Notes: generated by a model from the sequence alone, not told the origin. A stretch of 42,458 bases of DNA from Prorocentrum cordatum (GCA_963575745.1 CAUYUJ010000303.1:620001-662458), one strand, 5' to 3'. Positions 3,951 to 41,105 are shown, numbered from the stretch's first letter. Translations and numbers: made by a program.

Positions 3951-4102
3951 AGGCAGGCTGAGGCTGAGGCTGTGACTGCGACTGCCGTTGCCGCTGCGAC
4001 TGTCATCGCGAATGCGACTACGACTGCGAGAACAGCAGAATTCGACAACTGGATGTTCATCTGAATCTTAAGGGGAATGCTTTCAGATATGCTTCTACAC
4101 AT
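3951..4102 (+). repeat. 152-bp direct repeat, left copy
   Basis: Colinear with 7465-7616; 7 substitutions counted by eye. Confidence 0.92.
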
Positions 4103-12032: not shown

Positions 12033-12235
12033 GTCGGGCCGGACGAAAGGGGGGGACAGGGAAAGGGGGGATCACGAAATCTGCTGCATGCAGCGGGTTT
12101 CGGCCCCGCCGAGGGGCCGATTCCTCGATACATGGCCGCCTCCCGGCGCCGGGAGGCGCCGGGAAAATCAGCTACGTGAGCTGATTCTCAAACCCCCCCC
12201 CCCCTTTGCTATCCCCCCCTTGCGCCCGGCCCGAC
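12033..12235. mobile_element. MITE-like element with imperfect ~45-50-bp terminal inverted repeats
   Basis: The left end gtcgggccggacgaaagggggggacagggaaagggggg is roughly the reverse complement of the right end cccccctttgctatcccccccttgcgcccggcccgac. The TSD is ambiguous. Confidence 0.6.
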
Positions 12236-12345
12236 GGGGGCCGCCACGCGCGCGCGAGTTGGTGTTGTGCAGCACGTACTCTGAACCTCTCACCACAGGT
12301 TCTGGCACGCCTTTAGCCCAATGGGCCAGCGGATTGCATGCGAAG

Positions 12346-13332: not shown

Positions 13333-13343
13333 GCGCGCGTTCT

Positions 13344-13558
<215 letters not shown>

Positions 13559-13703
13559 CGTCGCCATTTCAAGAGCGCTTGGCCGAAGAGGCGTGCAGGC
13601 GAGTCCCGACTTGCGTGAGGTTCAGATTTCTCTTCGGGCCTCGTCCCCCCCCCTCCCGACTTGCAAGCAGACTTGCTAGAATCCAAACAACAATTGCCTC
13701 CAG

Positions 13704-13997
13704 GCGTTCCGGCTAGTGGAGGACCTGAGCAAGCAGCACGGCTTCCGGCCCAACGTCCAGGTCTACACCTGCCTTGTCCAGGCTTGCGTCCTCAACCGGC
13801 GGCTCGAGAAGGCGCTCGCGCTGCACGACGAGATGGTGGCGGACTCCGGGTGCCGCGTCGACGAGAAGTTCTACGCGGTGCTCGCGCGCGGGTGCCTCCA
13901 GATGCAGCAGCCGATGAAGGCCGCGGAGGTCGTGAGGGCGGCCTACCGTCTGGAGGGGCACAGCCTGGCGTCGCCCGCGAGGAAGAACGCCCCAACG
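13704..13997 (+). CDS. PPR protein, next exon
   Basis: Acceptor ccag|gcgttc. A phase-0 join gives RRLPQ|AFRLVEDLSKQHGFRPNVQVYTCLVQAC, which completes a PPR motif. Donor acg|gtcgtg. Confidence 0.85.
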
Positions 13998-22500: not shown

Positions 22501-24507
22501 GCAGGCTTTTCGCCGATCCAGGGCGGCGCTTGCGATGCCCTCAGCCAGAGCCCCCGCGGCCTCGAGCACCATGGCCAGCTCCCAAGCCAGCTCCACCGAG
22601 CCGCGCCACGCCGCGGCGCCGCCCATCTCAACCGCCACTGCGCGAACAGGCGCGCGCCCCATGGCCTGCGCGCGGCGCGCTACCGGCAGCAGCCAGACGG
22701 GGCGCCCGTCGAGGGGCCCAGCTCCGCCGCTGGGCTAGGGGAGCAGTAGGCCCCCTGGCTCGGCGAGCCCGCGGGGCCCGGTGCCAGCGGCCTCCGCCTG
22801 TCCCAATGCGTCCGCGGCCCAACCGTCCAGCTCCGCAGGGAGAAGGCGGAGCGCGCCCGCGGCCCCACCGTCGAGCTCGGGCTTTTTCCACGTCGGCACG
22901 CGCTGCAAGATGCTCGCCGCGAGGTCCGCGGTCCAGGGCGCGCGCGGCGGGCAGGGCGGGGGGCCGCCCAACTCCCGCAGCCGCTCCTTCCCGGCTGCCA
23001 CTCGCGGCTGCCGCTGCCGCAACTCGCTCCGCGGACCCGCGAAGAGGGGGGGCCGCGCCGCGCAGCCGCCGCGACGCGCGAGCAACCGCGGCCCGTTGCC
23101 CACCGGCGCGCCCGCGCCGCCAGCGGCGACGGGCGGGCGGGGCACGGGTGCGGAATCAACAACGCCCCACGTTGCGGATCCACAGTTGTAGAAACGCCCC
23201 TGCTGGTCCGTCAAACAATCGCGGCGACAGCCGTCGCGGCGCCGCGCCCCGGCAGCAACGCTGGCCTGCCGCCGTGCCTCCCCCGCGCGCCCCAGCAACC
23301 CTGCGGGCCCCTCCCGCCGCCGAAATCGCCGCGAGGTCCTGCGACCAGGTCGCGTCTGCGGCGCCGACGGCGCGTTGGGCGGCCAGCGCGCATGCCTGCT
23401 GCAATCCGCGCAGCCGCCGGGGCTGGGGCAGCGTTGCATCGGCGACGGCGTCCGCCACGTCTTTACCGCCGCCAGAGGTGGGGGGTGGCAATGAATCCGC
23501 CAAGTTGCCGCCGCGCGCGGGCGCTCCGGCGTGGCCGGCAGTCCGCGACGCACCGCCATCCACTCCGCCATGGAAGCATGCAGCCGTTGCCAGGCTTCCA
23601 GAGAGGCTCCCGCGAAACACGGTGAAATCCTCCAGTCGCGGCAACGCAGCTTTGCTATGCCCCACCTGCCAGAAGCCCCAATGCGCAGCAGGCTGGCTGT
23701 CGCCACCGCGCATTCTCCGACGAACCATCTGCTCCACGTCGCCCTTGACATGTTTCTCGCCTTTCCCCAGCCATTGCCTTGCATCGGCGACCGCGCCCAC
23801 GAACACATCGCGTGGGAAGGGGGGGCGCGCACTCTGGGCGCTGGCTCATTATTTTCGGAGCGCGCGCAGCCAGGTCGCTGCGGGGCCGCGCCGTTAGTTT
23901 TGCCCGCTCTGGGGCGCCGCAAGAACTCGCCATTCGCACGCAACTGCGCGGGCCTTTTCGCGGTGTCTCGGGGCCTCGCGGGGGGGGGGTGTAGGTTTCT
24001 TGGGGGCCTCCTTGGGGATTCTGTGTGTGTGTGTGTTATTTTTTTCTCGGGGCGTCTTGGGCAGTCGCGGGGTGCTTTTGCTCCGTCGGGCCCCGTCGAA
24101 AGTCGTTCCGCGGTCCTCTCGGGGGCGCCCTGGAGCTTTTTGGAAAGTCTCTTGGGCCTTCGGGGGGTTATTGTGGGCCGTTTTGGGGGCCTCTTCGGGA
24201 CATCAGGAGCCATTTTGGGTAGTCTTGGGGGCCTTTTGAGACAAGCTGGGACTGTTTGGGTGTCATTTGGGGGGCTGTTTTCGAGAAAAACAAAAACAGA
24301 AACATGCAAAAATGGCTTGACTTCTGGAGGTGCTCTTAAGGGCCCCGTCTGGGGCCTTTTGAGACCGTCTTGGGGACGTTTGGGTGGTCTCCTGGGCCGT
24401 GTTGGGGCCATCGTGCGCCGTCTTGGGGCTGCCTTGGGCCGTTTGGAAGCCATCTTGAGCCGTCTGGAGGCCTTCTTGGACCTCCAGGAGGCCTCCGAAG
24501 CCGATCT

Positions 24508-24792
24508 ACTTTAAACGGAGAAGGTTAAAGGCGAGGTATAAATCGAGCATGTACCGCTGCCGTGCCTGGCTCAAGCCGGGCCCGGCCAAATATGTGATTG
24601 TGCCTCACCGAGGCGCACGACTTGTATCTGAGATCGGAAAATACCTTTTCCATTGACGATGCCCATCCTATCCTTTACTCCAGATCCCATGCTTCGTCTC
24701 GCTCTCTTGCTCATGCGATATGAGCCAAAGCCTGGGATATGGCAACGCTTAAAGCGTAACACATACCTAAGCTTACCAGCTTGTTTTCGACT
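24508..24792 (+). repeat. 5' LTR (shared portion; may be 5'-truncated)
   Basis: Colinear with 40821-41105; 11 substitutions in 285 bp counted by eye. Confidence 0.92.
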
Positions 24793-25967
24793 TGGTAGCG
24801 GAGCTGGCTACACTCTCGTGTGGCTGGCTCTCGCTCTGATTCCTGTAATCCACGGCACAACTTGGTGGACTACTACTACGGTGGAATACCATGTTGCGCC
24901 GGCTCTGCGAGGAGCGGAGCCAGTCCGCGATCGAGCTAGCGGGGCAACCCGCGAACTCGAGACGCTCTCTCCTACTTCACTGCGCCACTTCACTCTCGAC
25001 TTCCACCAGATGCCAATCGGCAACTCGATCGAGAACGTGGTCACCCTGCGGGGCTACCCGCAGCGGGGCCACCTGCATCCCGTGCCAGTCAGGCGCCTCA
25101 CGGCTACTACGCCAGAGCCTGACAAACCACAGCCTAAACCAATCACCGAAGCCGAAATGCACATGCACTGGATTAAGATAACTATCTTCGGCATTCTGTG
25201 GGTAATAATGGGATGTGCTGTGGGATACATGCGGCAGGGGATGGACGACACGCGTACTACTGGCCCCTCATGGGACCCTGCCGGTACTACGCCTTTTCGC
25301 GAATACGTTCGCGAAGTACATGCATGGTTAAACGTAACGAGTGGCAATATGACACCACCACAACAAGCTGCAGCACTACAACGAGGCCTTCAAGGTCTGG
25401 CTCGTCGTATCGCCATGCAGGTCCCCTCCCAGATCATCAATTATGGTGTAACTGTCAATGGACAGCCAACGGATGCAGTAACCATATATACTGTACTTAC
25501 TGAGCACCAAATTTGAAAATCTGGAAGATGAGCGCCAGCTCAACTCTGGCACTGCCCTTATCGACTTTCGCGTCGAAAGGGGCGAGCGAATCGACTCAGT
25601 GTTAGCTCGATTCGAGATGGCCCGTGACGAGGCTAACTCTGTTGGATTTGTCATCCCCAACTTTAAGATCCTAACGCTGATTCTCTTCAGAGCGTTAGGC
25701 GTTGGCGCGTCACGAGCCCAACACCTGCTGGAGCCCTTTAATCATCAGATGCCCCGAACGCAAGCAGACTATGACAGGCTGCTGACCAGGATGAGGAACT
25801 ACGGACATGTTGCCGAGCGCTCTCCTGGCAACATTGCGGGTATCTTCGCAGGGCACCACTCACATGCAGGTGTCTACGCCACGACTGCGGGGTCACCCGC
25901 TGGTCCTGGCGAGCCAAATCCCTGGGCTGACCCAGCCGATATGCCCAACGAGGCCACTGCCTTTTAG
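24653..25967 (+). pseudogene. gag: Gag N-terminal/capsid-like region (two frames joined by a frameshift near 25490)
   Basis: PSWDPAGTTPFREYVREVHAWL...QQAAALQRGLQGLARRIA, then in the shifted frame LLSTKFENLEDERQ...IDFRVERGERIDSVLARFE, which resembles retrotransposon Gag. It lies directly after the PBS. Confidence 0.7.
24793..24807 (+). promoter_or_regulatory. Primer-binding site, probably initiator tRNA-Met type
   Basis: TGGTAGCGGAGCTGG starts immediately after LTR homology ends and resembles the canonical tRNAiMet PBS sequences TGGTATCAGAGC and TGGTAGCAGAG. Confidence 0.8.
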
Positions 25968-26244
25968 GGCAGACTGGCCAGGCATCGGCAGAGGCAGCTG
26001 AGGCGAACGCCTGTCGAACTACTCGCCAGGCGCCGCCTACACTGCAAGCCCGCCCTCGGGCACAACCCTCTGGGGCCAAGCGGAGTCATCCGCTCAAGGG
26101 TCTCAGCCACCCTCACCGTTTGAATCTGGCACTGACACAGATACCTCATCTGACGATGAGCACAATGGAATAGTCTCTGCTGGTAATGACTATCCAGCGG
26201 ATGACACTCACCTTTCTGAACAACAAAGAGCGGAAGCCGCTTTT

Positions 26245-29200
26245 ATGGCTTATCGCAAATCAAAACGCCGTTGGAGGCGCTTTATGAAGAAACCAGTCAG
26301 AAAAGTGAGACGTGCAGTACGCCGACATTTCAAACGATTTGGAAAGGGTCGTGGCAAAGGGGGTCGCAGACGCCGTATGCATGGTAGGGGTATTACTGCT
26401 TTCCTCACGTCCTTAACTGATATAGCCTTTGAAGAAGCTCTTATCGGAGGCAAAGGTCGGGGTCACAGGCGGACCTCCGGTAAGGGAAAAGGGCGGAGGG
26501 GCAACCCTAGGGACGCTTCTGGCAATACTATGAAGTGTCATACATGCGGTAGCACAGAGCATTTGCGCGATCAATGCCCGAAGGGGAAAGGAAAGGGATC
26601 CGTACATTTGGCTCAAAATTCTTTTATGGACGACATAGACTACATTGACTACGAGTATTACGTCAATCCAGAAGCGGCTCCCGCTGCGGGCTCCTCCACG
26701 TACTACGTGATGGCCCGCTACGCTGAAGTAACCGTAGCCCTGGAAGACTACGCAGTGACCCTCTTCGACGAGCTCCACGGCTGGGACGAAGTCGACGAGG
26801 TCGCGTTCAATGCTTGGTTCGGTCTTCCAGCGGGGCCACCCGCCGGCGACGAGGTCTCCGAAGCTGAGACCGTCCCGGCGACCGAGGAAGAGCTCACCGC
26901 CGCGCTGGCACCGCAGGTGATTGGCACGCCGTTGCTGCCAGATCTTTCGCGAGCTGGCTCGGAGGCGGGAGGCGCTGATGACGAAATGCGGGGCCATCCC
27001 GCGTATTCTGACTCCGAAGAGGCCGAAGAGGACTATAAGGACATGCTCCAAGAGCAGGTCGCAGAAGCAATCCGGCTCCTGAGTGCGCCAGCACATCAGC
27101 AGATAACCATGAACGACCTGCTGTCGCGCCCAGGGGCCGCACGGCTGCGTCCATACCTGGGTTCGGACATGTCGGCACCTCAGATGCTGACAGCACTCCA
27201 GGCTCCAGCGGGGTCACCCGCCGAAGTGACGCCAGCCGCAGCAGCGGGGCCACCCGCTTGGTCTATGGATGTATTTATGCAGGGCTGCGACCAGATGGAC
27301 CTCAACGACCTCACGATGGAGCAGTTAAACGACATCGGGTACTTCCGAAGCCCGTATCAACACGTATTCATGGTCCAGGACAGCTCAGAGGACTCGGAGG
27401 ACATGCGCTACGCCCAGAGGGACAGACGACCATCGCCTCCCCGAGACTCAGAGCATGACGATCAAAGGCCAATGGAACGTGGTAGTGCGTCAGCGGGGCC
27501 AGCCCGCAGGAGGAGCCGTTCAGCTCCCAGACGCCCTACACATGATGCATCGGGCTACCCGTGCAGCACTGAGCACTCCGTTGGCGTATCCGCTCAGCAC
27601 GTGCCGGAGTGGTACATCAATTGGTACCCCGGCTACTCGATGGACGTGATCCGCCACTGGTATTCTAAGGAATACTGCACCAAAAGGGACGAAACTGGCA
27701 TGATAATACGTACCAAGGGTGGCAAGACCAAAACGCCAGAGGCTTGGGACAAAAGGGCTAAGAAACAGGAGATCATCAACGATCGCAAGACATACAGGAA
27801 ACAAGTATGTCAGTGCGAGCCCTTCAAAGGTCACATGCGCAGGTGTCCGATGGACCGCCCCTCCAGGAGTCCTCATCACGGTGAGACCCCGTGGAATTGG
27901 TCTCATGGAGATGACGCTGGCAACGTCCATGATCCTAACAAGGAGGTCCCTGGAGGAGGAAAGCGCATCACCGAAGCCGATCGCGTCCCCATGACCGAAG
28001 AGGTGGCCAACATCGTCAGGGAAAATTGGGTACAGCTTCCCAATGACCATCGCCTCAAGGAGTGGAACCGCCGATTCCATAAAGAGGCGGGGTCACCCGC
28101 AGGATCTAGTAAAGAAGCGGGGTCACCCGCAGACGCGGCGCCAGCCGCTGGGTCCGCGGACGAAGATTGGATAGCTGTTGCATCTGCTGCTGGGTCCGCC
28201 GCCGGCACTGACCACACCGAACTGAATGAAGAATGGGCGGCGGAAGACGGCTCAGAGAATCCATTCCCTGATGGAAGCGCCTGCTGGTACTACAGCTCTT
28301 CGGCGCAGAAGTGGTTGTGCACGAGGGTAATCTACCGCCATGAGAATGGCAAGTACAAGCTGGCCATAAAAGGTACTGCCGACATCGACCAGATGAGGCA
28401 GGTCATCCATGATCATGGACAGCCAGATGGCCCTCCTAGAGACCCTCCTGGTCCACAACCGGGTAAGGGCAGCAGACCACCTCCAAGACCTAAAGCCGAC
28501 TCCTCGTCTTCACCGACTCCTGCGAAAAGGCACCCGTCCAAGAGCCCCGAAGGAACACAGGGGCGGGCGAAGGCCAGAGGGATCGCCAAGACGGACGACC
28601 TTGAGCTGGAAGATCCTCCCGGTCTGTCCGTGACGGAGAGGAGGAAGGCTTTTGCTGGACCATCGACCCCGATGCCACCGGCTGCCCAAGGCGATGTCAA
28701 GGACGTAGCTCGCAATCAGCCTAAGGCAGCCTTCCGAGGTGACTGGACTCCAACTCTGCATCAGCCGCGCCTTGCACCACGACCAGGTTCGGCACGAATG
28801 AAAGCGCAGCCGAAGCCTGAAGCTGGGATGAGGTCGGTGCGGGCAGAAGCAGCCGCCAAAGCTAAGGAGGACAAGGGCTCTGCGGGGCCACCCGCTAAAG
28901 CGGCGCCAGCTGCAGCAGCGGGGGCACCCGCAGAAGGCACTCTCTCAAGAGAAGAACGCTTCAAAGTCCTCAAGGAATTTGGCGACCGACAGAAACTAGC
29001 CGATGATGCAGTGGCTGACCAAGGTCACCCGCACCCTGGCGCGGAGTCATCCGCTGGAGTTGCCTCGTCAGCCGCAGGCTCTGCGGGGCCACCCGTTAAA
29101 GCGGCGCCAGCTGCATTGGCGGGGCCACCCGCGCGTTGGCAGCCAGTGATGTCTGTTCTCAGGAACATCCCTCTGGGAGCCATGGAATATTGGCAAGGCA

Positions 29201-31098
29201 TTGAAGGCAAAGGCCCGAAGCGCACCTCAAACCCACGAGTCACTCGAGACGATACAGATCGATACGAGGTCATTAATTGCCCTGATCGTCGTAACTTCGA
29301 GTGCCGCAACGACTGGGAACGTGAACAACAAGCCGTGGGAAATATGTTGCGAGACAGGCCGCCATTGCGCGTCGCGCAGCACAGGGCAGAGCTCATGAAG
29401 GTCATGGAGAAGATTAATACAGATCCTACTCTGCCGCGCGACTGGCAAATGACCAAGGTGTCAATATGGTTCTCTACAGCCCTACGCCATAGTCCGTATT
29501 GGAAGGATGGATTCAGCCGACACTTCGAAAATATCAACACTTTCGATCCATACGATGGCTGGGTTGTTATTGACGATTTGTTGACAAACTGGACTGAAAA
29601 CGATCAGTGGAAAGGCTACCGTGACATGCATGATGTGCTGATCAAGGGCAACCCTCACTGTTCATACGTGTACTGGGTGTTGCTAAACTGCTGCGAGATG
29701 ATCGACGGTCATGGTATGCAGAAGGGCAGGCTCCAGATGAAGTGCGTCGAGGACAGCATGAAGCGACATCCCAGATTCCGACCAACGGTACGCAGGCCAC
29801 AATACTTCATCAGAGCCACGAGCGGCCATAGCAGCCCAGGCATCCACTGCCCCGAGTCGCTCTATAAGCCGATCACAACATGGATGAAGGAACCAGACGA
29901 CCCAGTATACTTCATCCACGGGACACAGTGGGAACATGTCAAGGGCATCCTTGATAATGGCCTTTCATGCCTCGCACAGGACAACCCTACGGGGAAGGGG
30001 GGGCGCCAGTTCGTACACGGCTGCCCCTACCTCCCGGGTGACCCGAGGATTCAATCGGGCATCCGTCCTGACTCGGAGGTGCTCATATTCTGCAGCATCA
30101 ACAAGATGCTGTCCAGTGGCTTTTCCCTATGGAGGTCAGCAAATGACATCGTCATGACACGGGGCCACGACGGCCGTATACCGCCCGATCATATCCTCCA
30201 GATTGTGAGCATTGCGAAATATCGGGTCGGCGAAGCCTGGAGCAATCCGCTGGCTTATGACAAGTCGCGGAGGCGGGGCCAACCCGCGGACAGGATTCGC
30301 ACCGATGACTACCTGCCACTTAAATTGTGTGACAGAACTCTGGGTGTAATGGAGGATCACGCCATGTACCTAAAGGGCTGGACTAAGACGGACGGTCGCC
30401 CATTCAATTTGATCATGACCGAGCAAGATGTTGCTCCACGACCGTACGACACACAGACAGTCCTCATGATGAATGCCCAGGAGGACGAGGTCATGCCTGA
30501 AGCGGGGCCACCCGCAGGTGCGGGGACACCCGCGGTAGACACCTCGGAAGGTTCATGGCAACAAGTGGTCACACCAGTAGCAACGGTAGCATCTCCTTGG
30601 AGGCCGGACCAGCAGACATGGGTCCAGGCCCTCAACAGCTATTTGACACCAGCCGACGTCTCTGGACTGACCGATCAGCTATATCGTGCTGACCCGTGGG
30701 CAGTGCATACAGGTATCCAAGACGCACAGCAGAGGAACCTGCGCACTCCTGCGGGGCCTCCAGGCGTCCTAGGACCACAGCCACAACGCCCTCCGCAGCA
30801 GGCTGGAGGTGCGAGGTTTGTCCCTATGGCGGCTCAGATGGTGGCTCGCCGTTTCGGACTCCGCCGTCTGAAACGAGCGAGAACAGCTTGTGGCAAAGAC
30901 TCCAGGCGATTCGCGGGAATCCGGCGCTCGCAGCAGCACTCCAGGCGACCACTCCCTTTGGCACTCCGAGGGGTAGTGAAGGAGGAGTGGCTGCGGGGTC
31001 ACCCGCCGAGCGAACGCCTGCGGAGCCACCCGCGCATGCGGGGCCACCCGCTGACGGACAGCAAGGTTCAGACTATGAACGTCGGGCAGCCAACTTAA
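26245..31098 (+). CDS. Polyprotein segment (1617 aa): basic region, CCHC zinc knuckle, long disordered linker, SH3/Tudor-like module and Tpt1/KptA domain
   Basis: CHTCGSTEHLRDQC (CX2CX4HX4C) at 26536-26577; Tpt1 motifs at about 29452-30213. The coding frame probably shifts near 30830. Confidence 0.88.
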   Translation: MAYRKSKRRWRRFMKKPVRKVRRAVRRHFKRFGKGRGKGGRRRRMHGRGITAFLTSLTDIAFEEALIGGKGRGHRRTSGKGKGRRGNPRDASGNTMKCHTCGSTEHLRDQCPKGKGKGSVHLAQNSFMDDIDYIDYEYYVNPEAAPAAGSSTYYVMARYAEVTVALEDYAVTLFDELHGWDEVDEVAFNAWFGLPAGPPAGDEVSEAETVPATEEELTAALAPQVIGTPLLPDLSRAGSEAGGADDEMRGHPAYSDSEEAEEDYKDMLQEQVAEAIRLLSAPAHQQITMNDLLSRPGAARLRPYLGSDMSAPQMLTALQAPAGSPAEVTPAAAAGPPAWSMDVFMQGCDQMDLNDLTMEQLNDIGYFRSPYQHVFMVQDSSEDSEDMRYAQRDRRPSPPRDSEHDDQRPMERGSASAGPARRRSRSAPRRPTHDASGYPCSTEHSVGVSAQHVPEWYINWYPGYSMDVIRHWYSKEYCTKRDETGMIIRTKGGKTKTPEAWDKRAKKQEIINDRKTYRKQVCQCEPFKGHMRRCPMDRPSRSPHHGETPWNWSHGDDAGNVHDPNKEVPGGGKRITEADRVPMTEEVANIVRENWVQLPNDHRLKEWNRRFHKEAGSPAGSSKEAGSPADAAPAAGSADEDWIAVASAAGSAAGTDHTELNEEWAAEDGSENPFPDGSACWYYSSSAQKWLCTRVIYRHENGKYKLAIKGTADIDQMRQVIHDHGQPDGPPRDPPGPQPGKGSRPPPRPKADSSSSPTPAKRHPSKSPEGTQGRAKARGIAKTDDLELEDPPGLSVTERRKAFAGPSTPMPPAAQGDVKDVARNQPKAAFRGDWTPTLHQPRLAPRPGSARMKAQPKPEAGMRSVRAEAAAKAKEDKGSAGPPAKAAPAAAAGAPAEGTLSREERFKVLKEFGDRQKLADDAVADQGHPHPGAESSAGVASSAAGSAGPPVKAAPAALAGPPARWQPVMSVLRNIPLGAMEYWQGIEGKGPKRTSNPRVTRDDTDRYEVINCPDRRNFECRNDWEREQQAVGNMLRDRPPLRVAQHRAELMKVMEKINTDPTLPRDWQMTKVSIWFSTALRHSPYWKDGFSRHFENINTFDPYDGWVVIDDLLTNWTENDQWKGYRDMHDVLIKGNPHCSYVYWVLLNCCEMIDGHGMQKGRLQMKCVEDSMKRHPRFRPTVRRPQYFIRATSGHSSPGIHCPESLYKPITTWMKEPDDPVYFIHGTQWEHVKGILDNGLSCLAQDNPTGKGGRQFVHGCPYLPGDPRIQSGIRPDSEVLIFCSINKMLSSGFSLWRSANDIVMTRGHDGRIPPDHILQIVSIAKYRVGEAWSNPLAYDKSRRRGQPADRIRTDDYLPLKLCDRTLGVMEDHAMYLKGWTKTDGRPFNLIMTEQDVAPRPYDTQTVLMMNAQEDEVMPEAGPPAGAGTPAVDTSEGSWQQVVTPVATVASPWRPDQQTWVQALNSYLTPADVSGLTDQLYRADPWAVHTGIQDAQQRNLRTPAGPPGVLGPQPQRPPQQAGGARFVPMAAQMVARRFGLRRLKRARTACGKDSRRFAGIRRSQQHSRRPLPLALRGVVKEEWLRGHPPSERLRSHPRMRGHPLTDSKVQTMNVGQPT
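29452..30213 (+). other. Tpt1/KptA NAD+-dependent RNA 2'-phosphotransferase domain within the polyprotein
   Basis: Motifs in family order: SIWFSTALRH, DGWVVIDDLL, KGRLQ, IRATSGHS, FIHGT, ILDNGL...GRQFVH, SGIRPDSEVLIF, RSANDIVMTRGHDGRIPP. Confidence 0.88.
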
Positions 31099-32834
31099 GG
31101 GCACAGGCTACTTTTCTGCAGCAACAAGCTGATAGAGTGCCCAGCCTGTTGCGGAACCGCAACATAGATGTTACGAATCATGGCGACATTCGGCCTCTCT
31201 GGAGCTGGACTTCTGAAGATGCTCCAAATGCTGATCCCACGAATCCATATCGACAGGTGTTTATTCCAGGAATAGCATCACACCCAATATATGGATGGGA
31301 CAATCATGGACCAGCAGAGGCACAGGCCATGGACGCGCCGATGTACCCGGAGTACTACGCGCAGATGAATAATACTCCTATGATTGCGGGGCCACCTGCG
31401 AACAAATACACTCGGAATCTTGCCAATGAGATGTTTCGTTTGCAGTTTACACGAGCGGTCGATGCGCAGTCTATGCCGCACTACGCCTACATGCCCACGC
31501 CGACGGACCCCGAGACCATAGTTCAGCCAGCTGGTCTCGCGGTGCCAGCCGCTATGGGCAGCATGCCAGACTACATCCGCGACGTGCACGACACGCAGCA
31601 AGCGATACTGGCATCTAGGCAGCAGGCTCGGGACAACGCCAGGCTGCGCCAACAGCGCGCGATCCAGAGAAGGATCGAGCGTGAGACCCAAGCGGGGACA
31701 CCCGCAGACGCGGGGCCACCCGCTGAACGGACAGATAGACGGCCGCCACCGACGCCATATCGGGAGGGCGAAACCACTTTCGAGCGACAAGCTCGGACTC
31801 GCCCAGACGTGCCTGCTCCAGTTATTTCAGACTACAACTTCACACAGTGCCCAATCTGTATGGACACCTACGAGATGGGCACCATAGTGTGGAGACTGGC
31901 GTGTGGGCACTTCTTCCACGATATATGCTGGGATCGTGTTGCTCAGCAGCACGTCCGCAATCAGCGGCCAGGTGCGCCGAACGAGGCCCCCTGCGCTGTA
32001 TGTCGTGGGCCGGGCATAATTACAGCACATTTCCCGTATGCTGGACAGCGCGACGCTGAGTCGGAACAAGCGCGCCAGCAGGAAAGGTACGTGGTAGATG
32101 CCCAGGAACTGCGTCGGCTGCGGGAAGCAGTGGAGGCACTAGAGGCTCGAGCCGCACACTCGGCGGAGCCATCCGCACGTGCCCCAGCTGCACAGACACA
32201 CCCCTGGCCAACGCCAGAGCAAGGCATCCAGATGCCAATCCTGCCTACGCTTCGAGCGCAGGAGCCCCCAGCAGCGGGGCCACCCGCCGAAGCGGCTCCC
32301 GCCGCCAAAGCGGGGCCACCCGCAAATGGACCTCCGAATCCAGGATTCCTGAGGGCAATGGAGGCCAATATCAGGCGGAGTGGCAGGAGCGGAGGCGGGA
32401 CGCGCAGGCTGACTGGATCATCCAGGACCTCACGTGTGGCGAGCCCGGTCAGCGCTAGGAGCCGGGCAAGCGCTGAAAGTGCGGAGGCAGCCCAGTTCCA
32501 CACCACATTCATGATTGATACAAAAGGGCTGACCTATGCACGTGACGACACGGACACGCTGCCGCCAGGAGGTGAATGGATGTCCACACTCTCTGCGAAT
32601 TATTGGGTTCTTGAACAGGAACCAATTACCGTGGAGGAGCGCCGCCAATATGAGCAGATGTGGTGCACCGAGTTAACCATGAGTCAATGGGTGCTTGAAC
32701 AACGCCTGTTGAAAGGTACACTCGGTTCGCAGATCACGTACCACACCAATGACCATGGTACAATGGCTCTGGCAGCGCGAAATGGACATTCTTTCCTGAC
32801 GAAGACGGTATGCCCTGCATCTCGTTCATGCTAG
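30696..32834 (+). CDS. Polyprotein segment containing a RING-H2 finger (31848-32003)
   Basis: CPIC-x14-C-G-H-FF-H-DI-C-W-x20-CAVCR matches the C3H2C3 pattern. Confidence 0.8.
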   Translation: MGSAYRYPRRTAEEPAHSCGASRRPRTTATTPSAAGWRCEVCPYGGSDGGSPFRTPPSETSENSLWQRLQAIRGNPALAAALQATTPFGTPRGSEGGVAAGSPAERTPAEPPAHAGPPADGQQGSDYERRAANLRAQATFLQQQADRVPSLLRNRNIDVTNHGDIRPLWSWTSEDAPNADPTNPYRQVFIPGIASHPIYGWDNHGPAEAQAMDAPMYPEYYAQMNNTPMIAGPPANKYTRNLANEMFRLQFTRAVDAQSMPHYAYMPTPTDPETIVQPAGLAVPAAMGSMPDYIRDVHDTQQAILASRQQARDNARLRQQRAIQRRIERETQAGTPADAGPPAERTDRRPPPTPYREGETTFERQARTRPDVPAPVISDYNFTQCPICMDTYEMGTIVWRLACGHFFHDICWDRVAQQHVRNQRPGAPNEAPCAVCRGPGIITAHFPYAGQRDAESEQARQQERYVVDAQELRRLREAVEALEARAAHSAEPSARAPAAQTHPWPTPEQGIQMPILPTLRAQEPPAAGPPAEAAPAAKAGPPANGPPNPGFLRAMEANIRRSGRSGGGTRRLTGSSRTSRVASPVSARSRASAESAEAAQFHTTFMIDTKGLTYARDDTDTLPPGGEWMSTLSANYWVLEQEPITVEERRQYEQMWCTELTMSQWVLEQRLLKGTLGSQITYHTNDHGTMALAARNGHSFLTKTVCPASRSC

Positions 32835-33140
32835 ACATTGGGTCCAACGTGAACATCATTGGAGCCAATACGGCGCGAACCTTCCAGGAGATTATGGCCA
32901 GGTACAATCACAGACCTGCCATATGCACCCTGAGCAAGACCCTCTACATTAACGGTGTCGGTGAGGGTGCTGCGATATGTCGGAAGATGGGCAACTTCAA
33001 GATCGGGGTGCAATACGCCAATGAGGCAAGCCCCCGTATCGAGGAGTATGCCTCCAACATCGCAGAAGGCTCAGGTGCCAATCTCCCGGCCATCTGGGGC
33101 CTAGGAGCCATGGAAGCACGTGACACGATCATCGTGCTGA
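32822..33140 (+). other. Retropepsin-like aspartic protease domain
   Basis: FMLDIGSNVNII (D-x-G), flap-like INGVGEG and LPAIWGL (equivalent to the ILG motif), located upstream of integrase. Confidence 0.72.
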
Positions 33141-33402
33141 AGCCAGGCTACCAGAAGGTTATCTTCCCCAGCGGTGACTACACCCTGAAGCTGGGAAGGG
33201 GTGCCAAGGTCCTGAGGGCGAAGAAAACTCCCTCGGGACATCTCGCGATTCCCTGCGGTTTGTATGACGGGGCTAAAAGCCAGACGGTCACGAACACCTT
33301 CACAATCCGCAGCAGTCGAGATGGCTACACCGAGACGGAGAACGAAGAGGATCCCGTCAGTGCGGGGCCACCCGCCGGAATAAGTGCGGGGCCACCCGCC
33401 GG

Positions 33403-33413
33403 AAAAAAAAGTG

Positions 33414-33451
<38 letters not shown>

Positions 33452-33511
33452 AAAAAAAAAAAAAAGGGGGTGGGGGGAAAAAAAAAAAAAAAAAAAAAAA
33501 AAAAGGAAAAG

Positions 33512-33557
<46 letters not shown>

Positions 33558-33567
33558 AAAAAAAAAG

Positions 33568-33598
<31 letters not shown>
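33403..33598 (+). repeat. ~195-bp interrupted poly-A tract inside the polyprotein region
   Basis: Directly visible; flanked on both sides by agtgcggggccacccgccg. Confidence 0.9.
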
Positions 33599-33601
<3 letters not shown>

Positions 33602-34162
33602 GTGCGGGGCCACCCGCCGAAGCAACAGCGGGGCCACCCGCGACGGGACAGTCCATGACCGTCACGACCGATATGTACATTGTCGAGCCGTACATCGACA
33701 AGCAGCTCCTGGAAGACACGACCCGTTTGATCGTGGACAGGACGCTGAACAGCTGGTGGGAGGGCCAACAGTGTCCCGAAGGGACCTGGCACATATGAAG
33801 GATGCCCTGAAGTCCAAGATATTTTGGGCAGTCCAGGAGGCGGTGAATAAATGGACGCCTGAGAACCAAGCGGGGCACCCGCGACACCGCCACCACCACC
33901 AAGCTACACGGGCGGAGGTTCGTCGGACTCTGCGGGGCCAACCCGCGTGGAGATCGCGAGCGTAGCCGCACCAGCGCCTCCTGCGGAGCCATCCGCTAAC
34001 AGCATGCCCCCGAGTCAGACGGCAACGTGGTCACACGACCGCCGCTGACGGGGGCAGGCGGGCGCGCCGGCGGCGCTCGCTTGCGAAGAGAAGCCGAATA
34101 CCGGCCTCCTCGCGACATACGTTGGCCGCGCTGAGGGCCGAGAGGAAAAATATCATTCAAAA

Positions 34163-34730
34163 TGTCTTGTCATCGAAGATATTCGCACAGCTTGCGCTGA
34201 ACTCCGAACCCGTGGATATATATGCGACCGGATTACCCATAATGAGGTAATGACTTCAACTGGAACACAGTATTTGGGAAATTTGTTGTCAGGAGACTAC
34301 AATATGTTGTGGGTGGCCACACCCTCTGATTGGTACGTTCGTACTCCAGGAAAGAGGGCGGGACCACATTATCAACGTATGCAAAATCTCCTGATCAAAG
34401 CGCGTGCTCTGAGAATGCAGATTGTTATCCTGGGGCCACCCGGGTATTTCTGGAAACAGGGTCCGATCAAAGATGTTATCGAAGATTTGAAGCTAAGCGT
34501 TATACGAATCAGACTCTGTCATTTCGGTATCAAGTTTGACCGATCCAGTAAATATCCCAGTGGTTCTTATATACAAGTTGCTACATCTTGTCCTCATATA
34601 CGATAAACTTATGGAAATGTACTTGTGGATCACACAAGGAGCATGATTTGGATTGGTATGGCCAAGATCAGCAACGTGCCGAGCTTCGGTATAAAACTTT
34701 GGCTATTATTATTGCACGCTTCCTTGATCA
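34163..34730 (+). other. Degenerate C5-methyltransferase-like domain (copy 1)
   Basis: GDYNMLWVATP, IVILGPPG..W, IRLCHFGI, YIQVAT and KCTCGSHKEH parallel the motif order of copy 2, but there is no glycine-rich motif I or catalytic Cys. Confidence 0.45.
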
Positions 34731-35487
34731 ACTCGATAAAGCCAACATGATCAGGAATGAGCGGAGTGCGGTGCACCTCAGTGTGTGTACACGCGTTGAC
34801 AAAAAGGTCAGACACTACGTCCAATGTCCACAAAAGGGCCCTCAATGGGACCATGTTGTTCGTAGAGTCACGACCGACCTGGACACGAATAAGATCGTTC
34901 AAGATATCAGAATCCAGGATCAGCCAACTGGGTACAACTATGAAGCTCCATTACCTGATGGGGTTACAAACATCAGTACTCGGCTATACTGGGAGCCTCC
35001 GGCTCCAGTTCTTCATGGCGACGGTGAGTCGCGAAGGCCACGCCCAAAGCGTGTGACGATCGTCGATGACGATCGATCTCCTCCCCCTTCGATTGAGCGT
35101 TGCCAAACGCGACCCACCAACAACTTTCCTGAAATTCCGCCACTTCCTGACTTAACAGCGGATCCCTCCGCAGCGGATCTCTCCGCGGAAACTGCGTTGC
35201 CCACTGATGCCAGGATAAAACAGAAAGAAAAGCAGAAAGCTGACAAATAAGCCGGCATCAAACCGAAGAAAGTCCCGAAGAAAGTGGAAGATGGTAACGA
35301 CGACTGTGGAGAGGACCTCAAAGGGCTTGACTGCTCCACATATTTCAACGACGTTCCTCTTGACGACTCGGACTCGGACAGCGAATCAGAGGACATCTTC
35401 ATTATGTTACCGGCGGGGCAACCCGCTGACTCACATGCTGATGTCTTCTCGATAGTCCAGTCGCTATGCTACGGCAGAAATAATCAA

Positions 35488-36120
35488 GTGGACATGCTTG
35501 AATTATGTGGGGGCAAGGGTGGTATATCCATTTTAAGGCCTTCAAGGGGGACTCTCGTCAGGCGGGAACTTGACAAGAATATCTATGGTTGACCTTGGAA
35601 ACTCGGAAGTACAAAGAGCAGTCCTCCACTACCTCAAGACTTGCTTTGTCAAGATCACGATTCTTCAGCCAAGCTGCAGAACTACTGGACTTCCTTCCTA
35701 TTTCAATGCACAGGTCAATCATGATACGTGGCTTAAACACCACAAAGAGGACCTGCCTCACATCACGTTCTGCGGAACAGTTGCTCTATTACAAGACGAC
35801 CTAAGACGTTTCTTTCTCAGGGAACAACCAATGGGCACGTGGGTGGATGAGATCCAGCCATGGAAGGAACTGGCACAACGCAAGGTCACTTGCCAAACGA
35901 TTATTGATCAATGCACGACTGGTCTCAAAGATTCGTTTGGACAATACATTCGCAAGCCAACACAAATGATGGCAAACAAAGAAGAGTTGTTGGCACCTTT
36001 CAGAGGCAAGCGTTGCCCAGGTAATCATGTGCACGCCAATGCTTGCAACAAAGAACTAGCAAGGGCGGCACAGTATACCCGCAGAATGCAGTCACTGATC
36101 GTTGATGCGGTGCAAATCGC
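35488..36120 (+). other. C5 cytosine DNA methyltransferase-like domain (copy 2; frameshifted near 35540-35590)
   Basis: Motif I-like MLELCGGKGG, motif IV-like ILQPSC, motif VI-like FLREQP, then IDQCTTGL, RKPT, CPGNHVH and motif X-like AAQYT. Confidence 0.65.
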
Positions 36121-36869
36121 CAAAGATATGTTTGCTTACGGTCGCGATCCATTCGCGAATCGCGAACGCAGTTACGCGTTCGTAACAAACAGTGCTGGCT
36201 ACGACTTGGACGACCCAACAATCCAGAGACACTCAAACGGAGAAATCCTGCGACCACCATCTGGCGGTCTCGGGTGCCCTGGCTGCGCAGACAACAACTA
36301 CAAACAATCACCAAGGCACAGCAGGAATCCGAAGATGTGTCGATGGTATGATGTTGAACCATACTATTGGGACTGTCCAAGCTGTAAGAAGGAATATCAG
36401 AAGAGCAATCTTCACCATGCCAAGATATCTGGCCAATGCAGATTCGCCGAAAAATGGAAGCTGCCAGATAACTTTGGTCAGCCGCGCCCAGCGGGGCAAG
36501 CCGCTCCTGCGGCGCCAGCCGCGGAAGCGGCTCCAGCCGCAAAAGCGGCGCCGGCCGCGAAAGCGCGCATACGCGCGCCTAGGCCGCCACGGCCTGGTGA
36601 GGGCGATCCAACCGCAGGCGCCAGCAGCCATGACATCACCAGAGCCGACGGGGCTAATGGTGGCAGCAGTGGCGCTGGCAGCTCTGACGACCACCGTAGA
36701 CTGCCACAAGTTGCAGCAAGGCGCGGACGCATGGAGGGAGGAGATCCTCCACCACCGCCGCAGCCTCAAGCAGAGCCGAGGCCAAGGCCAAGGCTCCCTG
36801 ATTGGACTCGCTTCGACGTTCAGCTCAGCCTCCAAAACCTGCGCAGCTTTGACCCAGCTGTAGTGCAGC

Positions 36870-37540
36870 GAGAACTCCGCAAACTCCACTTGAGATGGTT
36901 TCATGCCAAGGAGCAAAAAATGCGGATGATTCTAACCAAGGTTGGTCTGGGTGAAACCCGTTTGAGTCTGATCAAAGGCATTTGCGACTCGTGTAGAGAA
37001 TGTCGAGCCTGGGACAAACCAGGCAACACGGTGATGCCTTCTGTGTCACTGCCAGGACGTTTCAACGAGGAAGTCGAATGTGATCTTTTTTTTACAAACA
37101 GGAACATATTGTTTTTCACATCATCGACCGTTGTATTCGCTGGGCAGCTGGCACAGAGATTCCTGATAAAACCATGCATACTGTTCTCGATGCCTATCAT
37201 ACAACTTGGATGCAACATGGCCCTGCTAAAATCTTATACTCCGATGGGGAAGGAGCACTGAACAACGATACAGCAAAGGCCATCCTTAAGGCTAAGGGAA
37301 CAGAGCTTCGTATCCGAGCGCGTGGCCAACACGCCACGACTATCGAAGCTAGGAACGGCATCCTGCGACACCTCTTACACGTGATGGGAGAAGAATTGAA
37401 TAGATTAAATATTCCTCTGAATTTCATTCGTCTTTTACATGAAGCCTTGTTTGCCAGCAACGCATTTACCTTCTACAATGAAGTGTCTCCGTACAATGCG
37501 CTGTATGGCAGACAACCAGCTATGCTTCCTGATATCCCTG
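36870..37540 (+). other. Integrase (HHCC plus DDE core; frameshift in the T-run near 37090)
   Basis: LHLRWFH...CDSCREC; FNEEVECDLFF; HIIDRCIRW; ILYSDGEG; HATTIEARNGILR; SPYNALYGRQP. Confidence 0.92.
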
Positions 37541-38904
37541 TCTTGGATCATGATCAGTCCGCTGAATCATCAGATCACTCAAGGGAGGAAACAATCAGGA
37601 GGGTTAGTCTGGAGGCAATCACGCAGGCCACTGCGGTTGCCAAGACGAACAGGGCTCTTCGTACGAAGGCTACTGCTACGGGTGAATTTCACTACAAAGA
37701 GGGATATCTCGTGGACTATCATCGCCCGACCACCACGAAAGACGACTGGGGTGGATGGAGTGGTCCATACCCGGTCATCCGCAACGAACCTGACCGAGGC
37801 CAGGTCATCGTGAAGGTCGGCAGTCGCGAGGTGCGAGTACAGTATCCTGACACACGACACACGCTGTACATCGAAGCACTTATGGTCCGCGAGATAGGAT
37901 CGGGCAATACGGCCCTTCGGACAGTATTGGCCTTTATTGCCGGTCTGCCAGCGGGGAAACCCGCCATGACTTTCGGATATCTACCAGCGAAACAGGGTCG
38001 GCTGCAGATGACTGCTGCGAGCCGACTTTCGCCTAAGGTGCACTTTGCTCTTCAGTACCTCATACGCAACTACTTTCGTATTGAAAACGTTGTTGCTGTA
38101 CGACTTGCCAAGAGCCTGACGAAGTTGCCTGCTGCACCCTATGCAGACAGCTGTACACTAGTGCACTATGATAATGATGTGACCCCTGGTTTTCATTACT
38201 GTGAAGCTGATGGCACTGCCTTGAACATCTACGACATCACAGGATCTACACACTCACGCATCATCCAGTGTCTTAAATCCAGGAAGCCGCCTGCTGGATT
38301 TGACCGAGACCTCACTAAGTTTGAGGAACTCGCTGATGGTCCACCACCAAGCGAGTCACCTCCAGCAGCTGCTCCTGAGCAGCCTCCTGCGGAGAACGAT
38401 GGTCGGCTCCCGACCATCATGGAAGAAACAGAAGAAGATCTGGATGCCTTTGTCTTGAAGTCGTGGTATGCTGAACTGATGGATGACAGAACACTCCTTG
38501 AAGTTGACACAGAAGAAGTCATGCATACAGTTCCCACATACATGACAGACACACAGTGTGTGTTAGTCTCTACGACCTGTGAAGATGTGCAAGGCCACTT
38601 GCCGGAGCGGGGTCACCCGCCAGGATACGACATGGACACTTCTTACTTCGTTCCTTTATGCTCCACGGATCCGGACAGTAAATATGATCTGGACTCCGAT
38701 GAGCACGGGAAGTACATCGAGCTCTGCTTCACAGCAGACATGTCCAAAGTCGCCCTGTCCGAGCAGCAACGCCGATTGTTGGATGACAGCAGCGTCACAA
38801 CTATGCGAGTGTACGTTAGTGCTGCCTCCAAACGTGCCGTGGTCGTCAAGGAAGACGATCTACTCACGAAGGCCGATATCCAAGCAAATCCGGTCAAAGT
38901 TTCC

Positions 38905-39680
38905 AAAGCCCTTTACACAGAATTGAAGACTTGGCTTGACAATAAATGCTTTCAGATGACTGGCTTGAGCAAAGCGTCTAATATCATGACGTCACGCTAC
39001 GTATACAAATGGAAGTTTGTCAAGAACGAAAAGGGCGAGATGGAAAGGACGATCAGGTTACGCTTGGTACTCCGTGGCTTCATGGACCTTGAAGCCTTTG
39101 ATGTCGAAACCTTCTCTGGCACGGCAAGGAGGTCAAGCCAGAGACTGCTCGCAAGTTCTGCTGCATGCAACAAAGCTTGGATCAACGCTTCCCTGGACAT
39201 CAACATGGCTTTCTTGAAGGGACTGACCTATGGCGAGCTCGCCGCGGCAACGGGCGAGAAAGAGCGTGTGGTGTGCTTCACACTACCACCTGGGTCAGCA
39301 GCTGTCCTTCGCACACTGCCAGGCTTTGAGTCATATGACGAATCGAAGCATTGTCTTCGGTGTCTGAAGCCGGGGACGGGCACGAAGGATGCTCCCAGGG
39401 CATTCTCGCTGAAGCTCAGGTCCATCACTAGGAGCTTTGGGCTACAGCCTACTTCATACGACGAAGAGTTCGAGATGAGCTCAAACCTCTTGACAGCCAA
39501 GCAAGTTGATGACATCAATATGACTGGGAAGGAAGAGGCTATTGACAAGTATGTCAAGTGTGTTGAAGATACGTTTGGGAAGTGCAAACTGAACAAGCAC
39601 ACATACACAAACTGTGCCGTTCGGTACAACAAGACCGATGATGGGAGCGTCACTCTTGATCAGGACGAATACATCAAACA
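38905..39680 (+). other. Copia-type reverse transcriptase
   Basis: ELKTW, SRYVYKWK, RLRLVLRGF, SLDINMAFLKG, LKPGTGTKDAPRAF and AKQVDDI, within ORF 37174-39930. Confidence 0.93.
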
Positions 39681-39939
39681 GCTTCGTCCCATCACACATC
39701 CAGAGCTCACAGGAGCTGATCCTGAGAGCAAAGCGACAAAGACGATTTCTGACATGTTCGTCAGTCTTCGTGGCGCTCTAGCCTATGCGTTGATCACGCA
39801 GGTATGGCTGATGGTCTATGTTGTCTCACTACAACGTATCCAGGAACCGACAAACATCCAGGTACGACGACTAAACGCGGTACCAGGAAACTACAGGCAG
39901 GTCCGAAGAAGATCGTGTATCAAGCTATGACCCCAACAG

Positions 39940-40450
39940 GAGAAGTCGACCTGCATAGCGATTCTGGCTATCGTCGTCTCAACGGAGATGAAGACGACGA
40001 AGTCAAAGGCTATGGTATCCGCGGGGCTAACCTGCTGAGGCGTGGCCACACGCAAGCGGGGACACCCGTCGTGCACCTGGTGGACGCATACTGCAAGTCT
40101 CATCGACTGCAGGTGCGTTCGAGCTACTCTGCGGAAACACTGGCAGCAGCCCACAACTTGGAAGACTGCTACCCGACCATTGAAACGCTCCACGAGCTAC
40201 ACTCGGGACCATTGACCCCCACACAGTTAAAGAACATATTGGAAATGGGTGGTCTATGTATCAAAGTCACTCTGACTATTGATGCCGAGTCTGTCTTCAA
40301 GTCTTTGTCTAGCAAAGATCTGAAGAAGCCCACAGAATGTACCCTGCTTGGGCACATTAGCTGGATCCGCCAGATGATGGAGCGCGGAATCGTTGAAAGC
40401 GTTCAATGGTGTGACACGCGGGATATGACTGCCGATGGTCATACCAAAGG
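39940..40450 (+). other. Copia-type RNase H (after a frameshift near 39880)
   Basis: LHSDSGY, VRSSYSAETLA, TIDAESV, WCDTRDMTADGHTK. Confidence 0.92.
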
Positions 40451-40820
40451 TAGTATTGACCGCGCGTTGCTCCTACAAGTAATGGCCGGCCAGCAATCCT
40501 TCACCCCCCCCCCTCCGCGGACCTCGGCACCCCCCCTCCCCCGCCGCCCCCCCCCCCCCTCCCCCCCCCCACCCGCCCCCAGCAATCCTTCCGCACGAGC
40601 TGAAGAAACATACACCGTATAGGGCGGGCAGGTCGTCTCAGGACGGCCCTGCCTCCCGAGCTAGCGGGGAAACCCGCGGGCAGGTGCGCTTTAATAGCGA
40701 GGAAACTCGCCGGTAGCGAGGCTACTCGCGCGCCCTTTCCTTGTAGGCAGCCGCTGCTGCTTAGCACTGTTTTTCCGCATGATGTAGAAGTGCGGTGCCT
40801 GCTCGTCTCCTCCCCCTCCG

Positions 40821-41105
40821 ACTTTAAACGGAGAAGGTTAAAGGCGAGGTGTAAATCGAGCATGTACCGCTGCCGTGCCTGGCTCAAGCCGGGCCCGGCC
40901 AAATATGTGATTGTGCCTCACCGAGGCGCACGACTTGCATCTGAGATCGGAAAATACCTTTTCCATTGACGATGCCCATCCTATCCTTTACTCCAGATCC
41001 CATGCTTCGTCTTGCTCTCTTGCTCATGCGATATGAGCCAAAGCCTGGGATATGGGAACGCCTAAGGCGTAATATATACCTAAGCTTACCAGTGCGTTTT
41101 CGACT
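40821..41105 (+). repeat. 3' LTR (portion shared with the 5' copy)
   Basis: Matches 24508-24792; ends ...gttttcgact directly before the satellite. Confidence 0.92.

Follow-up and report, generated by a model that had tools for sequence, protein, structure and literature searches.

A Tpt1/KptA-type RNA 2'-phosphotransferase domain encoded by a 16.6-kb Copia-type LTR retrotransposon of a dinoflagellate

We analyzed a stretch of 42,458 nucleotides from Prorocentrum cordatum (GCA_963575745.1 CAUYUJ010000303.1:620001-662458), referred to here as the window, and found within it a defective copy of a very large, 16.6-kb long terminal repeat (LTR) retrotransposon that has a gene order fitting that of Ty1/Copia elements and a marine dinoflagellate as its host. 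This element encodes a domain of the Tpt1/KptA family of RNA 2'-phosphotransferases in the same reading frame as a CCHC zinc knuckle. An LTR retrotransposon with Tpt1 as an accessory enzyme is new here in the sense that no report of Tpt1 in a retrotransposon was found in the full-text literature searched, which misses most subscription journals. The identity of the domain and the architecture of the element are, taken together, held with high confidence. Positions are counted from the first letter of the window, and the features of the element given below all lie on its + strand.

The Tpt1 domain, its predicted fold and its precedents

A preliminary description made from the sequence had placed a Tpt1/KptA domain at 29452-30213, and profile, motifs and fold all bear this out. 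Searched alone, this interval matched Pfam PF01885 (PTS_2-RNA) with 65.3 bits (E 9e-18; cut-off 26), and in the whole open reading frame (ORF) the same family scored 58.4 bits at aa 1248-1388, ∼970 codons after the knuckle and in the same frame. The match covered positions 55-177 of the 177 in the profile for the window and positions 5-177 for two relatives described below, the metagenome locus L001 and the ENA protein P0013. A sequence search of the PDB returned only TRPT1/Tpt1 proteins, namely those of human (7yw3, E 4.8e-14), mouse (7yw2, 8.8e-13) and yeast (7yw4, 4e-4). By Pfam, AlphaFold2, Foldseek and VIA-align, the domain with both of its lobes was placed at 29437-30243. The frame that it shares with the knuckle, as had been claimed, runs free of stops for 1698 codons (5.1 kb, 26002-31098) and shows in-frame homology to L001 from 26119 to 30558. 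The knuckle itself, CHTCGSTEHLRDQC (26536-26577), was recognized by its CX2CX4HX4C motif, scored 17.3 bits against Pfam zf-CCHC (E 0.005), which is under the cut-off of 20.8, and has a counterpart at the equivalent place in L001.

All of the signature blocks named in that description were located and aligned. The motifs LRH (29482-29490; R1162-H1163), KGR (within QKGRLQ, 29719-29736; R1243) and GRQFVH (30001-30018; R1335) supply the residues of the catalytic tetrad, HGT (29917-29925; aa 1306-1308) belongs to the NAD+ site, IRATSGHS was read at 29809-29832, and SGIR (30055-30066; aa 1352-1355) aligned with the canonical SGMR. In an alignment of 23 sequences, comprising the window domain, 8 further element-type domains and 14 canonical proteins, Arg-His, Lys-x-Arg, IRAxxGHS, HGT, the Arg of GRQFVH and SGxR all fell in conserved columns. 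By this alignment, rather than by the geometry of a model, the Arg-His-Arg-Arg tetrad was assigned, and it is present together with HGT and the arginine cage, the roles of which are defined in the available part of PMC6333775.

An AlphaFold2 model of window positions 29254-30321, built from a 79-row alignment, had a mean predicted local distance difference test (pLDDT) score of 83.1 and a predicted template modeling score of 0.80. Foldseek returned 22 matches in the PDB at E ≤ 0.001, all of them Tpt1/KptA, with 7yw2 and 7yw3 at the top (E 1.3e-13; template modeling scores of 0.79 and 0.74 per target). When superposed with VIA-align, the model matched mouse TRPT1 (7yw2) with Z 18.6 and a root mean square deviation (rmsd) of 2.2 Å over 205 of 206 residues, spanning both lobes (model residues 62-330), and human TRPT1 (7yw3) with Z 17.4; full-length archaeal and bacterial Tpt1 proteins (rmsd <3.5 Å) gave Z 11.6-12.8, among them that of Clostridium thermocellum (6e3a, Z 12.1). 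The domain is thus predicted to have the two-lobe fold of cellular Tpt1, with a winged-helix RNA lobe and an ADP-ribosyltransferase NAD+ lobe, and in sequence it shares with the cellular proteins the tetrad, HGT, the arginine cage and the eukaryote-type PGDxxIxSGxR block. A family-specific helical extension lies N-terminal of it (29311-29436; model helices 20-34 and 40-53, block pLDDT 85-95), outside the segment that superposes on solved Tpt1 structures, and is conserved in L001, in a second metagenome locus (L002), in P0013 and in P0025. Overall, with the profile above its cut-off and the model matching TRPT1, the two comparisons that the preliminary description had proposed for this interval, the results indicate a genuine two-lobe, NAD+-dependent RNA 2'-phosphotransferase domain of the eukaryotic type, in which the activity itself is predicted.

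Precedents for parts of this arrangement exist. According to the available sections of PMC9503650, large phages commonly encode KptA, and eukaryotic viruses lack it or have it only rarely, with exceptions that include a picorna-like virus and a nidovirus, both positive-strand RNA viruses, which embed KptA in their polyproteins. Compared by description, these viral proteins are likewise encoded by selfish elements, and some by a polyprotein, but their carriers are viruses; a term search of that source did not find "transpos". Captured and retained host enzyme domains are known from dinoflagellate and charophyte retrotransposons with DNA methyltransferases, as described in the accessible portion of PMC5890265; the enzyme there is a DNA methyltransferase and not Tpt1, and the Symbiodinium Copia superfamily is described in it without such domains. 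The elements SmTCL1-4 of Symbiodinium microadriaticum are, like ours, dinoflagellate LTR elements with the integrase, in ours an integrase-like region, upstream of reverse transcriptase (RT) and RNase H; compared by description, one of them is ∼10 kb against 16.6 kb here, and the sections available of PMC5776459 describe RT, integrase, RNase H and LTRs and mention neither Tpt1 nor RING. A list of accessory domains in retrotransposon polyproteins is given in PMC6338049, and a term search of the text accessible found neither phosphotransferase nor ADP-ribosylation in it. Terms for Tpt1/KptA and for retrotransposons co-occur in PMC4053983 and PMC3549820, but PF01885 appears there only in domain tables. 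Tpt1, with a RING domain described below, thereby joins the short list of accessory enzymes of LTR retrotransposons.

Relatives, selection and the state of the window copy

The same combination of domains recurs outside the window. The ENA protein P0013 (1627 aa) matched 100% of the query at 45% identity and unites Tpt1, RING and a protease-like region in a single chain, and a metagenome scan yielded three loci, L001, L002 and L003. In L001 (8780 bp), the end of an RNase H-like ORF is followed by an LTR-like stretch of ∼289 bp, a 17-nucleotide word resembling a primer-binding site (PBS) and a 2653-codon frame, open at its 3' end, which encodes a Gag-like region, the CCHC knuckle, Tpt1 (aa 1387-1620), RING (aa 2130-2183) and a protease-like region. 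Its protein identity to the window was 35-62% outside the RNase H part, and because so distant a relative carries the same order, the architecture is old and conserved. The preliminary description had suggested looking at sibling elements, and L001 does keep Tpt1 at the same position. As judged from their sequences, the stretch from the Gag-like to the protease-like region forms a single frame in intact relatives. In an unrooted maximum-likelihood tree of 48 rows, 10 of 10 element-type domains fell together to one side of a long branch (Shimodaira-Hasegawa-like approximate likelihood ratio test 99, length ∼2.3); a single long-branched clade of this kind would fit one ancient capture, without proving it. 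The canonical Tpt1 relatives include proteins with four tandem domains (P0023) or two (P0030), a 1700-aa tRNA-ligase-CPD-Tpt1 protein (P0112) and a 2H-phosphoesterase-Tpt1 protein (P0160).

Contigs of four public runs, from four studies, were aligned to 24400-41200 and covered all 30 bins in each run, the Tpt1 bins included. The family is found in metagenomes of marine, estuarine and freshwater origin and reaches great abundance in at least one cultured organism. Some deposited P. cordatum gene models (P0003, P0008 and P0014-P0017) are chimeras with the N-terminal half of the Tpt1 region of the element, which some of them join to the protease-like region or to unrelated sequence, and one is named a protein-tyrosine-phosphatase in its source. 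Because the family is so abundant and widespread, it likely matters for the annotation of dinoflagellate genomes.

Selection was estimated by the Nei-Gojobori method from L001 and L002, which are 81% identical in the Tpt1 domain. Nonsynonymous (dN) and synonymous (dS) rates over the 245 codons of the domain were 0.116 and 0.902, giving a dN/dS of 0.128. The conserved stretch directly upstream gave 0.435 (70 codons; dN 0.207, dS 0.476), and the linker before that stretch gave 0.774 (152 codons; dN 0.238, dS 0.308). Even when the dN of the domain was set against the lowest regional dS, the ratio was still ∼0.37. At 45% identity, a distance at which the linkers can hardly be aligned, the window, L001, L002 and P0013 retain every catalytic column; the Tpt1 domain of L003 contains stops and a frame change. 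Consistent with the preliminary description, which had proposed a ratio below 1 as a sign of retention and for which the value is 0.13, the codon comparison indicates that the Tpt1 domain is kept by purifying selection. What Tpt1 acts on in biology, apart from tRNA splicing in fungi and plants, is called an open question in the available part of PMC6333775, and a selfish element that keeps Tpt1 under purifying selection points to a concrete setting in which RNA 2'-phosphates or 5'-ADP-ribose caps would matter.

Several observations weigh against this picture of a conserved and canonical enzyme. The dN/dS of 0.128 comes from one pair of metagenome contigs and a simple method, and dS differs threefold between the regions compared. 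The element-type domain is divergent: it is 25-29% identical to cellular Tpt1, scores 45-65 bits on Pfam against 150-190 for canonical proteins (about one-third), reads RQF[VI]H where those have RxHxH, carries two insertions in the RNA lobe besides its helical N-terminal extension, and sits in a polyprotein where cellular Tpt1 is a free protein of ∼200-250 aa. Because of this divergence in Pfam score, in RQF[VI]H and in the RNA lobe, its substrate may differ. Nor are the motifs kept everywhere. A crude motif count among 156 proteins gave 29 element-type fragments, and in those that cover the respective position, RQFxH was kept in 14 of 18, HGT in 8 of 10 and KxR in 4 of 5 (SGxR in 15 of 15); P0004 and P0011 have Ile for an Arg of the tetrad, and P0007 has RGA for HGT.

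The condition of the window copy belongs with these points. Homology to L001 passes through frames 2, 3, 1, 3 and 2 between 24785 and 33241, with more frame changes downstream. Most other copies in the four runs carry single-base insertions or deletions (indels) relative to the window at 25482, 25963, 26012, 32783, 33789, 34600, 35536-35578, 37085 and 39880, which fall at eight frame junctions of the window and have the sign needed to keep one frame there; among the 12 indel sites listed (27 more exist), none accounts for the frame junction around 30558-30786 or for the reading frame that follows 33789. Homopolymer assembly errors were considered as the source of the frame changes and rejected: because all but one of the 12 listed sites lie outside homopolymers, the indels look like real mutations. 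Within the Tpt1 interval, the best-supported differences from other copies comprise 5 nonsynonymous and 2 synonymous private changes, the former being C1220S, G1236D, R1255L, H1256P and T1330K, none of them at a catalytic motif. Loose ends at 29650 and 30008 indicate that some copies break within the domain. Together with the 4% divergence of the LTRs, the frame-breaking indels and the private changes indicate that the window copy is old and dead. The words "apparently intact" in the preliminary description consequently hold for the Tpt1 domain and fail for the copy that carries it, with its many frame-breaking indels. Working members of the family probably encode one very long polyprotein.

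Possible functions of the domain

Since Tpt1 would be made within the Gag-Pol precursor, we posit that it enters the particle together with the RNA and the primer tRNA, where, with NAD+ as cosubstrate, its target would be the phosphate groups on nucleic acid belonging to the element itself. The leading proposal is that it would remove internal 2'-phosphates from the RNA template or the primer and so unblock reverse transcription, and it is ranked first because this reaction defines the Tpt1 family (it is given as the canonical one in the available part of PMC6333775). For identity, architecture and this specific role to hold jointly strikes us as slightly short of an even chance. What counts against the role is that its substrate is hypothetical, since we know of no step in a retroelement cycle that creates internal 2'-phosphates.

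A tentative alternative, and a weaker one, is that Tpt1 transfers ADP-ribose from NAD+ to the 5'-monophosphate ends of the element's cDNA or RNA. Such a cap could shield 5' ends from exonucleases or from end-joining into dead-end circles while leaving the 3'-OH free for integrase. The fragments of cDNA and RNA that RNase H produces during reverse transcription carry 5'-phosphate ends, which are natural substrates for capping. Consistent with this proposal, the model was closest to mammalian TRPT1 (Z 18.6 and 17.4 compared with 11.6-12.8 for archaeal and bacterial proteins), KptA complexes with 5'-ADP-ribosylated DNA (9lda and 9ld6) were among the structural matches, and the enlarged RNA lobe fits an altered substrate. 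However, the closeness to TRPT1 may only reflect eukaryotic ancestry, the sole solved fungal structure (7yw4) being of the C lobe only, and the sequence does not separate the two activities. Moreover, only a subset of the Tpt1 enzymes tested is known to cap 5' phosphates efficiently. ADP-ribosylation of 5' phosphates is described for mammals and bacteria in the accessible sections of PMC12678800 and PMC10415124. In its full form, the claim that a lineage of LTR retrotransposons employs its own Tpt1 to cap the 5'-phosphate ends of its cDNA or RNA with ADP-ribose taken from NAD+ is speculative; if true, it would describe a nucleic-acid ADP-ribosyltransferase that is the first to be encoded by a retroelement, and a novel means of protecting or routing replication intermediates.

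We consider it unlikely that Tpt1, perhaps with the RING domain as a ligase, acts instead on host molecules in a conflict between element and host, where it might repair host tRNAs or other RNAs cut by a defense nuclease, make or consume an NAD+- or ADP-ribose-based signal, or mark a host restriction factor. Viral KptA is placed in RNA-repair counter-defense in the available sections of PMC9503650, and Tpt1 and RING occur together in the window, L001 and P0013. Yet the long ORFs of the element that were scanned against Pfam contain no RNA ligase, 2H, Macro or kinase domain, and the tetrad that binds nucleic-acid phosphates is kept.

Less probable again is a passenger or non-catalytic module, either a captured host piece in decay or a structural or RNA-binding part of Gag. 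Such a module would account for the 5 nonsynonymous against 2 synonymous private changes of the window domain, for the several fragments without catalytic residues, for the copies that break within the domain and for the gene models P0003, P0008 and P0014, in which the N lobe is joined directly to the protease region. The decay of single copies is expected in any transposon family, however, and both the dN/dS of 0.128 over 245 codons, against 0.774 in the neighboring linker, and the retention of the catalytic columns where the linkers barely align argue against such a module. Finally, an artefact, whether a misassembly or a host TPT1 gene lying beside or inside a retrotransposon, is hardly credible, for although the window copy has many frame changes, the same order occurs in an independent metagenome contig (L001) and in an ENA protein (P0013), contigs of four runs from four studies span the whole stretch, and Tpt1 and the knuckle share a single frame of 5.1 kb.

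Remaining features of the element and the window

The element is bounded by two direct repeats of 285 bp (repeat family D10), the 5' LTR at 24508-24792 and the 3' LTR at 40821-41105, which are 96% identical and have the coding region between them. Together with an RT of the RVT_2 family above its cut-off (see below), they support the Copia-type LTR element of the preliminary description. The start motif and length of the LTR are matched in L001 (∼289 bp). By eye, the LTRs of this old copy end in ACT...ACT, the 5-bp flanks are GATCT and GAGAA, tandem repeats stand on both flanks, and neither TG...CA termini nor a target-site duplication nor a polypurine tract was seen at the ends of the window element; the tract that precedes the LTR start is rich in pyrimidines, not purines, and is conserved in the window and L001. 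A PBS-like 17-mer that begins with TGG, TGGTAGCGGAGCTGGCT (24793-24809, read from the sequence), abuts the 5' LTR, and the identical 17-mer follows the LTR-like stretch of L001 (1014-1030) despite the 35-62% protein identity of the two elements. No tRNA gene was found within the window. A match of the LTRs to the spliced leader was also considered and rejected, since 18 of 100 shuffles gave two or more matches; the 9-nucleotide word TGGCTCAAG, found only in the two LTRs (24567-24575 and 40880-40888), resembles the end of the dinoflagellate spliced leader, at a level not above chance.

Upstream of the long frame, the leader and a Gag-like N-terminal region (24785-25964) are split over frames 2 and 3 and were recognized by tblastn with the L001 polyprotein, at 48% identity in frame 2 (24785-25513) and 62% in frame 3 (25485-25964). 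Its Gag identity is inferred from position; no Pfam gag family matched. A conserved region between the knuckle and Tpt1 (27538-28101) is 35% identical to aa 893-1087 of L001 and has no Pfam family. Downstream of Tpt1, a RING finger lies in frame 3 of the window copy (31848-32003) and exceeded the curated Pfam cut-offs for zf-C3HC4_2 (31.7 bits; cut-off 27) and zf-RING_2 (30.2 bits; cut-off 27.3); that of L001 matched zf-RING_11 (33.8 bits; cut-off 27). In the window, L001 and P0013 alike, the RING stands between Tpt1 and the protease-like region, and it is the second unusual accessory domain for an LTR retrotransposon. The protease-like region (32822-33241, with LDIGSN at 32831-32848) aligns with the C-terminal part of the polyprotein of L001 at 36% identity and is so named from position and motif, no Pfam protease family having matched. 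It is followed by an A-rich tract (33400-33600) that reads as poly-lysine.

The ∼3 kb between the protease-like and integrase-like regions, including 34049-35250, matched no Pfam family. Within it, a conserved domain at 35251-36580, also without a PDB profile match, is shared with P0169, P0170 and P0171 at 41-58% identity, and an AlphaFold model of the relative P0169 from a 5-row alignment reached a pLDDT of 31.8 and gave no usable fold. Its motifs ELCGGxGG, QPSC and REQP are reminiscent of those of C5 DNA methyltransferases, for which the Pfam and PDB profile searches gave no support. The integrase-like region (36887-37359) was read from the translation as H-H-C-C followed by D, D and E and lies upstream of RT; Pfam rve was not detected in it. 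The named clusters of the ESM Atlas closest to the ORF joining integrase and RT contain RVT_2 and rve (scores 0.81-0.82), which we treat as a lead only, and the same resource gave nothing usable for the ORF at 35537-37261. The RT is of the Copia type (38944-39723), matching Pfam RVT_2 (PF07727) over positions 2-237 of 244 with 38 bits (cut-off 31.6; E 1.8e-9), and RT family and gene order together fit Ty1/Copia.

The RNase H-like region lies in frame 3 of the window copy (39954-40502) and was identified by homology to L001 and by D, E, D and D motifs (39954-40442). Over 171 aa (39990-40502), it shares 87% identity with an ORF, open at its 5' end, that lies ahead of the LTR in L001 (L001 2-694); set against 35-62% elsewhere, this value suggests that rates are very uneven, that lineages have recombined or that the metagenome contig is a chimera. 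A C-rich tract (40503-40593) that reads as poly-proline ends the RNase H ORF and is skipped (89 bases) by contigs in each of the four runs; its very high depth marks it as a common low-complexity repeat. Pfam searches at E values up to 5-10 returned no family for the Gag-, protease-, integrase- and RNase H-like parts or the unassigned regions, and a PDB sequence search gave nothing useful for the integrase-RT ORF, the RNase H ORF or the ORF at 35537-37261. The Gag-, protease-, integrase- and RNase H-like assignments are accordingly worded as likenesses, drawn from motifs, position and homology to relatives.

The element is also dotted with a 14-nucleotide hairpin motif of the form GCGGG-GNNA-CCCGC. 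With at most one mismatch to GCGGGGYCACCCGC, 29 copies were found between 24939 and 40677, all on the + strand, where 0.15 were expected; a looser hairpin pattern likewise gave 29 sites, all within the element and none outside it. The hairpin is the predicted minimum free energy structure, with a 5-bp stem and a GNNA loop, and the copies are often paired, 18-36 nucleotides apart. In coding parts it reads as Ala-Gly-x-Pro-Ala, always in identical codons, and it also occurs in the leader (24939, 25048 and 25063) and the trailer (40664). AGxPA, as a repeated peptide or a protease site, was rejected as the full explanation, because the same 14 nucleotides and codons recur, including in the leader and trailer outside the ORFs. 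In L001 (17 sites) and L003 (5 sites), the corresponding word is GC[GA]GG-NNNN-CCTGC. The window has G-C at the third pair of the stem in 27 copies and G-U in 2, L001 has G-U in 13 sites and A-U in 4, and L003 has G-U in 4 and A-U in 1; A-C never occurs there on the sense strand. Because the third pair stays G-C, G-U or A-U in this way, the pattern points to a signal that would act at the RNA level, on the sense transcript. As a guess, the hairpins might be packaging or nucleocapsid-binding sites; the ∼30 sense-strand GNNA hairpins could belong to the same RNA-handling system as Tpt1, and no link between the two was found.

The surroundings of the element are eukaryotic nuclear DNA with satellites, and the nearest database proteins are annotated as P. 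cordatum. A tandem satellite with a 193-bp unit begins directly after the 3' LTR (41105-42458), and a long GAG-rich repeat lies at 3200-3970. An ORF with PPR repeats occupies 11833-13716 (Pfam PPR_2, E 2.9e-54).

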